From an uncultured Bacillales bacterium (GTDB lineage: Bacteria > Bacillota_I > Bacilli_A > Acholeplasmatales > Anaeroplasmataceae), in assembly GCA_946407635.1 (NCBI GenBank), contig CAMJOZ010000001.1:2763-66762 (forward strand): 64,000 nt of DNA. Reading direction: 5' to 3'. Of the stretch, positions 41,420-43,141 are shown piece after piece (the stretch's first letter is position 1; every line of letters starts with the position of its first letter). The position numbers were made by a program, and so were the translations under genes. The notes under the pieces were generated by a model. The model was not told the origin of the DNA. It made no database searches and worked only from the letters and a program-made list of their open reading frames with translations.

Positions 41420-43141
41420 TTACTTCTCCAATAATTCAAATAATTTCTTAGCTGCTAGCTTTGGTCCATCATGTTCCATGCCAGGAACAGCTAATCTTGT
41501 ATGTAAATTACCAACAGGGACACCTGTTTTAAATAATTGATCAAACATCTTATCAATGATAACTCTAGTTTGAGCTTCTCTTTGAACTGGTCCGAATGGA
41601 TTTGCAAAGAATGATTCAGTCATACCCATTTCTTGAGTAGTACCCTTAGCTCTTCTTGCACCACGAATGAAAATCTTCTTAGCTTCGTCAGCGTTATCAT
41701 AAAATTCAATTTCTGATTCACATTCTTCATCATAGTTATTAGCATATAAATACATATCTACCTTATAACCCTTCATAATTTGAGGGTATGTAGCAACCGG
41801 AATAACTAATCTTGAGTTTACCTTATCTGGATTCATGAAAATAGCTCTATCCATTTCTCTATATGCATAACCAGATGTCATATCATCTAGTCTAACAAAC
41901 GCACCAATTTCAGTACCATAAGCCATAACCTTACCATCTACAATCTTGAATGTACCCATATCATCAAATACAGTTAATTGAGATGAAATGTTATCTCCAG
42001 CCATTTCAGATAATGCTTCTAATGATTCACTCTTACCAGCACCAGAATCACCCATAATTACAACATTCTTTGTTGTACCATTTTTCATAGTGATATGAAC
42101 ACAAGCACCATGAATTGGTAAGAATCCCTTATCAATCATTGAAGTATTATATAAAGTTAATAACATCTTCTTCATATAACCAAAATAATCAATTGAATCA
42201 TTATGTGGAGCAATTCCTACATAAATATCATTTTCTTCATCATGATAAAATTCTGATTCACCATCATAATCAGCACCAAAAATATATAATAAATCTGGCT
42301 TTTGACCTTTACAATTAGATAGTGGTACGAATTCAAATAAATTACCAATAGTAATACCATGAGCCATATAATCTCTATGGAAATATACATAAGCTAGTGC
42401 ACTACCAACCTTAGCTGCATAGCAATAGAATTCAAATGCTTTGAAATTATCTTTCACTCTATTGATTGGATTTTCTTTAGCTTCTGGATAAGTACCAGTT
42501 CTCTTATTCTTTGCTGAATAAGAAATGAATGGTGGACGAATTACAATTTGTTCAATAGCTTCACTCTTAGCTAAGAAATAGTAAGGTGAATCTTTCTTCA
42601 TCCATTCATTCTTTGATAATAATAATGCAGCGTTAACACCTGCAGGTAATTGACGATAAATAGGGAAATTAGCTCCAAATAATTTTTCAGAAATAGAACG
42701 ATATGTACTTAAAATAACATTGTTAAATTGGCTTTGTGCTTCAACGAATGAAGATGATTCAACACCATCTTTTGTTGCTCTATTTAATACAACTGCATAA
42801 CGTTCTAAACGTCTCCAATAATCATAGAAGTTTTGAACTAAATCATATAAAACTTCTCTCATTTCTAATGCTTTAGCATAAAAAGGATTTAAATTTTCAA
42901 TCTCATCAATAGAGAATGATAAAAGCATTTTAAATAAATCAATAGTATATTTAGCTACACTTTTCTTTGGGAAAACAGTTAATACTGGTAAAAATGATTG
43001 ATTCTCAGTATCATAAATGTGCTTTAAATATTTTGTCCAAACTTCCTTAAAGCAATCTGAATTTAAAACCTCAGTAGGGCTTTTACAAAACTTTTCTGAA
43101 AAGTTTAATACTACTTGTCTTTGTCCTGTTACGAATTCCAT
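41420..43141 (-). CDS. Uncharacterised protein with a C-terminal HPr-kinase/PEPCK-like P-loop domain
   Basis: 573 aa. [37 protein letters not shown]...FDDMG parallels the HprK C-domain pattern (hHG..v...g.gvLi.G.SG.GKSE.AL...DD). I recognise nothing in the N-terminal ~330 aa. Confidence 0.5.

Follow-up and report, generated by a model that had tools for sequence, protein, structure and literature searches.

What does a protein of 573 residues do when its gene lies between fhs and a purE that has no other purine genes beside it? The question comes from a 64,000-nucleotide stretch of DNA (the 64-kb window) on a contig of an uncultured Bacillales bacterium. A sequence-only reading of this gene, here called X, had noted a nucleotide-binding signature of the HPr kinase (HprK)/PEP carboxykinase (PEPCK) type and proposed that X might replace PurK, with a kinase of purine or folate metabolism or a regulator as alternatives. 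The locus comprises the following features, all on the minus strand.

44947..45444, minus strand: pyrR-like gene, upstream of fhs (Pfam).
44917-44889, minus strand: promoter-like site upstream of fhs, TTTAAA-17-TATTAT with a TG-extended -10 (consensus scan only).
43162..44829, minus strand: fhs, formate-tetrahydrofolate ligase (Pfam FTHFS 910 bits; NCBIfam NF010030 943 bits, cutoff 652).
41420..43141, minus strand: gene X, a divergent PEPCK-superfamily protein of 573 aa with an ATG start (ORF, AlphaFold2 model, Foldseek, hhalign).
40945..41415, minus strand: purE, class I N5-CAIR mutase, 156 aa (TIGR01162 227 bits, cutoff 149.6).
40938-40917, minus strand: terminator-like hairpin with a T run, directly 3' of purE (sequence scan).

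The three central genes follow one another in the order fhs, X, purE, separated by 20 and 4 nucleotides. After the fhs stop codon TAA (43164-43162) come GGAAGAGGAAGAG ATTATTT and the ATG of X at 43141; X itself ends in TTG GAG AAG TAA, followed by AATT and the purE ATG at 41415. A Shine-Dalgarno-like run for purE, GGAGAAG, lies within the final codons of X, and both the tight spacing and this overlap, as first described, are confirmed. The promoter-like site and the terminator-like hairpin are consistent with a single three-gene unit, with the limit that promoter-like sites in the region are no more numerous than in shuffled sequence. Rfam searches upstream of fhs and pyrR, at the gathering cutoff and at E ≤ 1, returned no credible riboswitch or leader. 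The order yebC-pyrR-fhs-X-purE is kept in three close relatives (L001, L177, L178).

The PurE of the window carries the class I motifs SAHRTP and AGGAAHLPG. It is 82-85% identical to other "orphan" PurEs and, given this identity and its intact motifs, is under purifying selection. A longer 164-aa purE ORF with a TTG start is an ORF-calling extension, as homologues measure 156-158 aa. Searches with tblastn found no purK, purL, purC, purM, purF, purD, purN or purH in the 64-kb window, and the sole other purine gene there is guaB (7891-9426).

Database searches show that X belongs to a large family. With 5773 homologues at E ≤ 1e-3 in a 90%-clustered database and 521 clusters in a 50%-clustered one, X is a real gene. 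The family occurs in at least 588 species genomes, ranging over Bacillota, Mollicutes-like lineages, Fusobacteriota, Thermotogota, Bipolaricaulota, Nitrospirota and DPANN archaea. Its database names are similarity-derived and inconsistent: RefSeq applies the name "phosphoenolpyruvate carboxykinase" to many members from Clostridium and Thermotogota, a PF01293 match is on record for some from Thermosipho, and others appear as ATPase, EcfA2, hypothetical, or [quoted passage not shown]. The named relatives WP_055226098.1 (C. baratii), B8D1H0 (H. orenii) and B7IFA9 (T. africanus) fall in the same family at 45-50% identity to X. We know of no characterised member, and a literature search found no paper on the family. 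One Heliomicrobium paper cites a "PEP carboxykinase-like protein", whose membership in the X family is not evident from that paper.

Structural comparison places X among the PEPCKs. The AlphaFold2 model (pLDDT 92.7, pTM 0.92) has the two-domain PEPCK fold, and all of the top 50 Foldseek matches in the PDB are ATP- or GTP-PEPCKs (E 2e-16 to 1.6e-14), with alignments covering 420-490 of 573 columns at TM 0.40-0.50. Profile comparison agrees, with hhalign aligning X residues 138-573 to residues 19-464 of E. coli Pck within a nine-sequence ATP-PEPCK profile (probability 92%, E 6.4e-7). Identity in the structural alignment is just 12-16%, and X falls below all curated PEPCK models: Pfam PF01293 matches residues 317-371 only, at 17.2 bits (cutoff 26.5), and among the NCBIfam PEPCK models the best, NF006821, reaches 17.3 bits (cutoff 369). 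Pfam and NCBIfam otherwise yield sub-threshold PEPCK and generic P-loop matches only. Sequence searches of solved structures, with a single sequence or a 45-sequence profile, gave P-loop noise, with the PEPCK 1j3b at E 0.52, and PF00821 appeared in one giant homologue only, at E 0.07.

Together these comparisons show that X belongs to a large and deeply divergent branch of the PEPCK superfamily, whose fold it supplements with additional helices at the N-terminus, and that it has a P-loop for binding NTP. The PEPCK half of the original fold assignment is thus borne out by the model and by Foldseek, and its HprK half is not, since no Pfam HprK match appears even at E ≤ 1. The N-terminal ~330 residues, earlier considered unplaceable, can now be divided: from about residue 140 onward X aligns with the PEPCK N-terminal domain, and residues 1 to ~112 remain outside the alignment. 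In the model, DSSP assigns helices at 22-111.

The nucleotide-binding motifs quoted earlier, including IHGACVHI and FDDMG, are present in X, and residue-level comparison was made with the ATP-dependent enzyme, whose reference we take to be PckA of E. coli (b3403; PDB 1AQ2, 2PXZ; Pfam PF01293; TIGR00224). In Pck, His232 and Asp269 are Mn2+ ligands, Tyr207 and Lys212-Lys213 form the CO2/substrate and Mn2+ site, Arg333 binds phosphate and substrate, and Arg65 of the N-terminal domain binds the carboxylate of oxaloacetate or PEP. The corresponding elements of X are listed below, with conservation figures taken over 401 family members.

42806..43141, minus strand: mostly helical N-terminal region of X, residues 1 to ~112, outside the PEPCK profile alignment (DSSP of the model, hhalign).
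42167..42187, minus strand: motif Y319-F-G-Y-M-K324-K325, matching Pck Y207...K212-K213 (hhalign; Y319 99%, K324 100%, K325 98%).
42110..42112, minus strand: H344 (LPIHGA), matching Pck H232 (hhalign with the PEPCK profile; 98%).
42026..42052, minus strand: P-loop G364-D-S-G-A-G-K370-S371-E372, matching Pck GLSGTGKTT with K254 and T255 (hhalign; 91-100%).
41960..41965, minus strand: D393-D394 (FDDMG), the probable counterpart of Pck D268-D269, in a register made ambiguous by a six-residue indel (99%).
41810..41812, minus strand: R444 (NSR, pattern NxR), matching Pck R333 in ENTRVSYP (hhalign; 98%).

The PEPCK catalytic set (Tyr and Lys-Lys, His, P-loop Lys with Ser/Thr, and the NxR Arg) is shown to map to near-invariant residues of X. 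Y319, K324, K325, H344, K370, S371, D393, D394 and R444 are each 98-100% conserved, and none falls below 97%. The kinase-1a pattern GxxGxGK[ST], found at 248-256 in E. coli, occurs in X as GDSGAGKS (364-371), with G364, G369, K370 and S371 conserved at 99-100%. For the acidic pair, hhalign sets D393-D394 on a later DDD run of Pck, and equivalence with D268/D269 needs a six-residue deletion. Family members that lack the P-loop also lack the NKR arginine. A counterpart of Arg65 was not located by hhalign, whose N-terminal alignment is of low confidence and differs between Pck alone and the nine-sequence profile; R163 and R214, each 98% conserved, are candidates for this position.

Size and motif order extend the likeness to ATP-PEPCK (540 aa in E. 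coli, 573 in X). Several motifs are collinear between X and Pck: NLF with NMF, KPD with KPDF, AKGTTxExG...FANPFG with AKLAGTERG...FSACFG, YFGYMKK with WYGGEMKK, and NxRV with NTRV, as are LPIHGA and the P-loop. X differs in its roughly 110-135 extra helical residues at the N-terminus, in lacking the EHGWDD stretch after the Asp-Asp pair, in its low identity, and in scoring beneath every curated cutoff. GTP-PEPCKs (rat cytosolic, chicken mitochondrial and M. tuberculosis; PF00821) match equally well in structure (E 4e-16 to 1e-14, TM 0.43-0.49), whereas X has no significant match to their sequence model.

The same comparison bears on whether X could be a regulator with a P-loop, such as an HprK/P-like protein kinase/phosphorylase. 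HprK/P, which phosphorylates a protein, belongs to the "PEP carboxykinase-like" structural superfamily and joins a nucleotide-binding subdomain to an unrelated N-terminal domain. The P-loop GDSGAGKSE of X, followed by an acidic pair, fits the form GxSGxGKSE of HprK/P, and the nucleotide-binding subdomain is generally known to be common to HprK/P and PEPCK. However, the best structural matches, PEPCKs throughout, align across both domains of X, the PEPCK-specific Tyr/Lys-Lys substrate and metal motif of the N-terminal domain is conserved, and HPr/PTS genes are absent from the recurring neighbours of X. A full two-domain PEPCK architecture with an intact catalytic set also weakens the idea of a regulator, and we consider this explanation very improbable.

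Replacement of PurK is a further reading on which fold and gene context both bear. It holds that X makes N5-CAIR, or otherwise carboxylates AIR, for the class I PurE. Points in its favor are that a selectively maintained orphan purE follows X closely, at a distance of 4 nt in the window, and that PEPCK chemistry involves CO2; PurK and, by prediction, X both use ATP, lie next to purE, and handle a C1 unit at the oxidation level of CO2. Yet PurK is an ATP-grasp enzyme and X has a PEPCK fold. A PurK-type ATP-grasp gene directly follows purE in five loci (L002, L009, L011, L016, L017) and lies about 5.9 kb downstream in a sixth (L018). In these six loci purL, purC, purM, purF, purN, purH and purD also come after purE in the same direction as X. 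On N5-CAIR synthase models the PurK-type gene reaches 300-353 bits, slightly short of their cutoffs, and it scores only 93 bits as PurT. Because these six related loci carry both genes, X and PurK coexist, and X does not take the place of PurK within the operon. One of them (L002) encodes an X that is 83% identical to that of the window. In the window and in relatives 75-90% identical (L001, L003, L004, L006, L008, L177, L178), purE is the sole pur gene adjoining X.

Linkage to purE likewise fails to extend across the family. Of the 165 fetched loci, 14 have purE near X (counting the window, 15 of 166), all of the Acholeplasmatales/Anaeroplasmataceae type, and X members from Clostridium, Fusobacteriota, Thermotogota, Halanaerobiales and DPANN archaea have no purE neighbour. 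A search of the literature on a purK/purE "missing gene" and on Anaeroplasma purines gave nothing usable. Replacement of PurK by X is thus already largely refuted, scarcely credible in our estimate, and the annotation of X as a PurK analogue, attractive but wrong, can be removed.

Within this clade, fhs is present in all 21 fetched Acholeplasmatales/Anaeroplasmataceae-type loci that include the 5' flank, plus the window. Two loci (L002, L009) show the extended order aminotransferase-guaB-fhs-X-purE-purK...purD. Three purine arrangements, namely fhs-X-purE(-purK...purD), purN-purH-purD-aminotransferase-X and guaB-purA-aminotransferase-X, place X within a pur operon or at its edge and could suggest a kinase role for X, on a purine or folate intermediate and limited to purine biosynthesis. 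In L002 and L009 the canonical pathway nevertheless already includes all of purE, K, L, C, M, N, H and D, and no kinase step is missing. Outside the clade, many X members occur in arginine, TCA-branch, aminotransferase or uninformative contexts, and some are solitary in Clostridium, which weakens this proposal and makes it improbable.

Gene neighbourhoods elsewhere reveal a recurrent association with aminotransferases. A class I aminotransferase adjoins X in Cetobacterium, Fusobacterium, Anaerococcus, Woesearchaeota and four metagenome loci, and a class V enzyme lies beside X at the end of purN-purH-purD in three others (L023, L155, L165). Among the 580 genes that lie no more than two positions from X, 14 encode these aminotransferases, compared with 3 among the 1416 more distant genes (odds ratio 11.7, Fisher p 7e-6, a statistic that ignores phylogeny). 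In three giant proteins, each from a different 50% cluster, an X core is preceded on its N-terminal side by a Pfam Aminotran_1_2 segment. None of the X-adjacent aminotransferases reaches the curated cutoff of any aspartate-aminotransferase model.

Other contexts connect X to arginine synthesis, the TCA branch and C1 metabolism. The Woesearchaeota arrangement is guaB-purA-aminotransferase-X. Halothermothrix orenii has argC-argJ-argB-argD-X with carAB-argG nearby, and two Clostridium loci (L031, L077) place X after a Re-citrate-synthase-like gene, aconitase, IDH, argG and argH. Near X there is also folD in four loci (L012, L015, L021, L022) and a B12-binding/methyltransferase/MTHFR set in three (L143, L145, L160). 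Most Clostridium loci are uninformative, as are those in T. africanus, a 3.98-Mb contig and a Nitrospirota contig.

We propose, with moderate confidence, that X carries out a PEPCK-type PEP/oxaloacetate reaction serving aspartate supply. X would interconvert PEP plus CO2 and oxaloacetate in a nucleotide-dependent manner, and a neighbouring or fused aminotransferase would convert oxaloacetate to aspartate. This aspartate would be used by PurC and PurA for purines and by ArgG for arginine. In the window's clade, X may have been co-opted to a place at the front of the purine operon, with fhs supplying formyl groups, X the aspartate precursor, and purE onward the pathway itself. In the window's own sub-lineage, just fhs, X and purE would be left together as a three-gene unit. 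Should X prove to be a functional PEPCK, it would supply the oxaloacetate/aspartate node that metabolic models need for many anaerobes of the gut, the rumen and hot environments, and would show how far PEPCK sequences can drift with the catalytic set kept.

A possible but less probable alternative is that X keeps the PEPCK fold and phosphoryl transfer and acts on another substrate or donor. Its activity would be paralogous to that of canonical PEPCK; X could, for instance, handle a different 2-oxo acid/enol-phosphate pair that is then transaminated, or be a kinase that serves serine, glycine or C1 metabolism. On one Bipolaricaulota contig (L088), a canonical ATP-PEPCK lies two genes from X, and because this contig carries both, X is not simply an organism's only PEPCK; canonical pckA was absent from the 81 genome loci and from the window. 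The extra N-terminal helices also fit another substrate, as do four conserved N-terminal arginines (R114, R148, R163, R214), more than PEPCK needs, and the failure to locate an Arg65 counterpart. To judge from the sequence, these surplus arginines could reflect a different or larger substrate. The C1 neighbours (fhs, folD and the B12-binding/methyltransferase/MTHFR set) lean the same way, and the class V aminotransferase finds its best matches, below cutoff, among models of aspartate-glyoxylate and serine-type transaminases. Against this, the Tyr, Lys-Lys, His and NxR Arg used for PEP, oxaloacetate and Mn2+ are all kept, with the Asp-Asp pair conserved. The arginine and TCA-branch contexts suit aspartate and oxaloacetate better than serine or C1 units, and no result points to a specific alternative substrate. 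If X is not a PEPCK, it would be a widespread enzyme of another reaction, with links to aminotransferases as well as to the synthesis of purines and arginine.

More speculatively, and rather doubtfully, X may represent a fourth carboxykinase-like class beside ATP-, GTP- and PPi-PEPCK, having its own substrate or donor and an aminotransferase partner (fused in some giants) and working alongside canonical PEPCK. The fhs-X-purE trio, kept while downstream genes change repeatedly, could add a joint role of X and PurE outside the standard purine pathway. The presence of an HprK-style P-loop on a full PEPCK scaffold is also relevant to the evolutionary connection that has been proposed for PEPCK and HprK/P. 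As a minor observation, the plasmid collection contains a single X homologue, in an uninformative context on the L. fermentum plasmid CP033373.1.

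The 573-residue protein X, encoded between fhs and purE, is almost certainly an enzyme of the phosphoenolpyruvate carboxykinase (PEPCK) superfamily. An AlphaFold2 model built from an alignment of 45 sequences (pLDDT 92.7, pTM 0.92) was compared with the PDB using Foldseek, and all 50 of the 50 best matches are PEP carboxykinases, both ATP- and GTP-dependent (E 2e-16 to 1.6e-14, TM 0.40-0.50, 11-16% identity). Since 420-490 columns are aligned, the similarity spans both PEPCK domains; the HprK/PEPCK-like fold of the sequence-only reading is therefore upheld as PEPCK and is not confined to the HprK-like nucleotide-binding part. 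The N-terminal ~110-135 residues, mostly helical in the model, lie outside the PEPCK alignment. Additionally, profile-profile comparison with nine ATP-PEPCK sequences (E. coli pck, seven pckA genes from plasmid records and one Bipolaricaulota PEPCK) matches X 138-573 to residues 19-464 of the E. coli enzyme, Pck, with a probability of 92% and E 6.4e-7.

Residues of X and their Pck counterparts in the profile-profile alignment
Y319: Y207
K324/K325: K212/K213
H344: H232
GDSGAGKS: GLSGTGKT (K254, T255)
R444: R333
AKGTTxExG...FANPFG: AKLAGTERG...FSACFG

These mapped catalytic residues are 98-100% conserved in a family alignment of 401 sequences, in which 63 positions reach at least 97%. D393-D394 is 99% conserved, and its match to D268-D269 of Pck requires an assumed six-residue deletion. 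Candidate counterparts of Pck Arg65 are R163 and R214; the conserved arginines also include R114 and R148. Three full-length members in alignment A1 (P0162, P0187, P0197) carry degenerate P-loops (GDSSSGKHE, GDMGAGKSE, GDAESGGIK) and lack further conserved residues, the NKR arginine among them; all three may be paralogues without catalytic activity.

X is barely visible to curated sequence models, scoring 17.2 bits against Pfam PEPCK_ATP (cutoff 26.5; residues 317-371 only) and 17 bits against NCBIfam PEPCK models, whose cutoffs are in the hundreds. PDB searches with its sequence and profile returned P-loop noise only. Despite these weak scores, the family is large and well defined, with 5773 homologues in a 90%-clustered database, 521 clusters at 50% identity (mostly full length, 530-600 aa), and at least 588 GTDB species genomes with a member. 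The closest homologues in the 90%-clustered database are encoded by Acholeplasmatales/Anaeroplasma MAGs, so the window can be assigned to that group. RefSeq names many members 'phosphoenolpyruvate carboxykinase', older records use 'putative P-loop kinase or ATPase distantly related to phosphoenolpyruvate carboxykinase', and JGI uses 'EcfA2'; a literature search found no paper on the family. One 569-aa member, annotated 'phosphoenolpyruvate carboxykinase' and 43.7% identical over residues 103-552, lies among uninformative neighbours on a 252-kb Limosilactobacillus fermentum plasmid (CP033373.1, 88508-90217; locus L096).

The window's unit comprises the following features.

Features of the fhs-X-purE unit
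44917-44889, minus strand: promoter-like site, TG-extended, upstream of fhs
43162-44829, minus strand: fhs, 555 aa (FTHFS 910 bits, NF010030 943 bits)
41420-43141, minus strand: X, 573 aa, ATG start
41415, minus strand: ATG of purE (TIGR01162 227 bits, cutoff 149.6)
40938-40917, minus strand: terminator-like hairpin, 7 nt past purE

Pfam and NCBIfam scores make fhs and purE unambiguous. Downstream of the fhs stop come GGAAGAGGAAGAG ATTATTT and the X start, a gap of 20 nt, and X ends in GAG AAG TAA, then AATT and the purE ATG, with a GGAGAAG run within its final codons ahead of that ATG. The tight three-gene arrangement described from sequence is thus correct. A TTG-start purE ORF of 164 aa is an ORF-calling extension, as homologues have 156-158 aa; the motifs SAHRTP and AGGAAHLPG are present, which we take, following established PurE literature, to indicate class I. 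Rfam finds no known RNA element in the upstream region; its sole match in the window is a ribosomal protein L10 leader (RF00557, 59031-59150, minus strand, 82 bits, gathering 44).

Linkage to purE had prompted the speculation that X replaces PurK. ORFs were predicted and clustered in 81 genome loci. The fhs gene lies immediately 5' of X in the window and all 21 fetched Acholeplasmatales/Anaeroplasmataceae-type loci with a 5' flank, and purE lies 3' in the window and 14 fetched loci. However, a 363-aa ATP-grasp protein with APRPHNSGH directly follows purE in five loci (L002, whose X is 83% identical to the window's, L009, L011, L016 and L017) and lies ~5.9 kb downstream in L018. N5-CAIR synthase models make up all its top NCBIfam matches (353, 316 and 300 bits, just below equivalog cutoffs), against only 93 bits for PurT, and purL, purC, purM or purF, purN, purH and purD follow it. 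X and PurK therefore coexist in one operon, the opposite of what replacement predicts. Moreover, purE linkage is confined to this clade: purE adjoins X in none of the Clostridium, Fusobacterium/Cetobacterium, Turicibacter, Thermotogota, Halothermothrix, Woesearchaeota and Bipolaricaulota loci, nor in any of 80 metagenome loci. A PurK replacement is thus extremely improbable. Without it, the enzyme family still has a very wide distribution, a confident predicted fold, an intact predicted active site and a reproducible partnership with aminotransferases.

Close relatives show two arrangements. L002 and L009 carry the full operon, aminotransferase...guaB-fhs-X-purE-purK-purL-purC-purM-purN-purH-purD, whereas the window and seven loci (L001, L003, L004, L006, L008, L177, L178; 75-90% identical) keep yebC-pyrR-fhs-X-purE, with variable genes 3' of purE, the sole nearby pur gene. 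This orphan PurE is 82-85% identical among them, with class I motifs intact. The fhs-X gap of L010 (JAZNYN010000133.1) measures 106-128 nt. X is followed there by a PurE-like ORF called on the other strand, and the PurE match shares only 54% identity with the window's PurE, in contrast to every other locus of the clade. L009 (CAVFNL010000005.1), labelled Parabacteroides distasonis, encodes an X that shares 73% identity with the window's, together with an Acholeplasmatales-type pur operon; its bin and that of L071 (JAIRMS010000012.1, labelled Holosporaceae) are probably contaminated or mislabelled.

Directly past the purE terminator, the window holds a lipid/polyketide-like cluster (32280-40740, minus strand): an ACP, a 796-aa protein with two ketosynthase domains, a FabG-like reductase, a FabA/Z-like dehydratase, a flavodoxin-like/FMN-reductase protein, a second ACP-like ORF, BCCP, biotin carboxylase and carboxyltransferase, with ORF 32280-33203 adjoining. 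In relatives this place is occupied by different genes. A 385-aa class I/II aminotransferase adjoins a DUF3737 protein ~10.7 kb upstream of X (53853-55855, minus strand), and ORFs of 438 and 141 aa at 50144-51917 (minus strand) have no Pfam match at E<=1e-8.

Across lineages, a class I aminotransferase directly adjoins X in Cetobacterium (L037), Fusobacterium (L064), Anaerococcus (L081), Woesearchaeota (L085, as guaB-purA-aminotransferase-X) and four metagenome loci (L147, L151, L153, L158), and lies two to six genes away in L002, L009, L020 and L021. A class V enzyme stands next to X where purN-purH-purD ends, in Turicibacter (L023) as well as L155 and L165. Of the 580 genes that lie no more than two positions from X, 14 belong to these two families, versus 3 of the 1416 farther away (odds ratio 11.7, Fisher p 7e-6, shared ancestry ignored). 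The neighbouring aminotransferases score below the curated cutoff of every aspartate-aminotransferase model. Natural fusions are seen in three giant proteins, each from its own 50% cluster, in which a Pfam Aminotran_1_2 segment (33-45 bits, gathering 19.7) lies N-terminal to the X core.

Giant proteins (Aminotran_1_2 at residues ~700-860, X core at ~1335-1960)
P0251: 2146 aa
P0269: 2024 aa
P0270: 2199 aa

P0266 (1206 aa) has an X core and lacks any Pfam match.

Other neighbours include argC-argJ-argB-argD-X in Halothermothrix orenii, with carA-carB-argG nearby; a homocitrate/Re-citrate-synthase-like gene, aconitase, IDH, argG and argH before X in Clostridium L031 and L077, the majority of Clostridium loci being uninformative; the synthase-like gene and aconitase before X in L046; and argF adjoining X in L124 and L125. 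The genes that recur beside X in unrelated lineages thus point jointly to oxaloacetate and aspartate. Aspartate is a substrate of PurC, PurA and ArgG, oxaloacetate is one of citrate synthase, and aminotransferases convert each into the other, so the simplest reading that fits them all is PEPCK-type oxaloacetate supply or removal. Within the window's clade, the operon would supply purine precursors, with formyl groups from fhs, an aspartate precursor from X and the purine pathway proper after them.

ATP-PEPCK is the system that X works most like, yet X is not filed as an ordinary PckA because it fails sequence-model membership and the counterpart of the substrate arginine is not fixed. We give PEP/oxaloacetate carboxykinase activity an even chance, while a related but different reaction is possible, if doubtful. 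X is a strongly divergent variant within a known superfamily, already loosely recognised in databases, and not a new kind of system. In Bipolaricaulota L088 (JAIPHN010000007.1, 7001-12987), X lies two genes from a convergent block of GDH, canonical ATP-PEPCK (594 bits on NF006820) and an Asp_aminotransf-type aminotransferase; with both PEPCK types in one neighbourhood, X is not merely the cell's only PEPCK.

C1/methionine contexts also occur, with folD or a B12-binding/methyltransferase/MTHFR set. In one metagenomic lineage (L143, L145, L160; genes identified by eye from sequence, not by HMM), X lies between a proC-like gene and a B12-binding-domain protein, with pterin-binding methyltransferase-like and MTHFR-like proteins on the latter's side.
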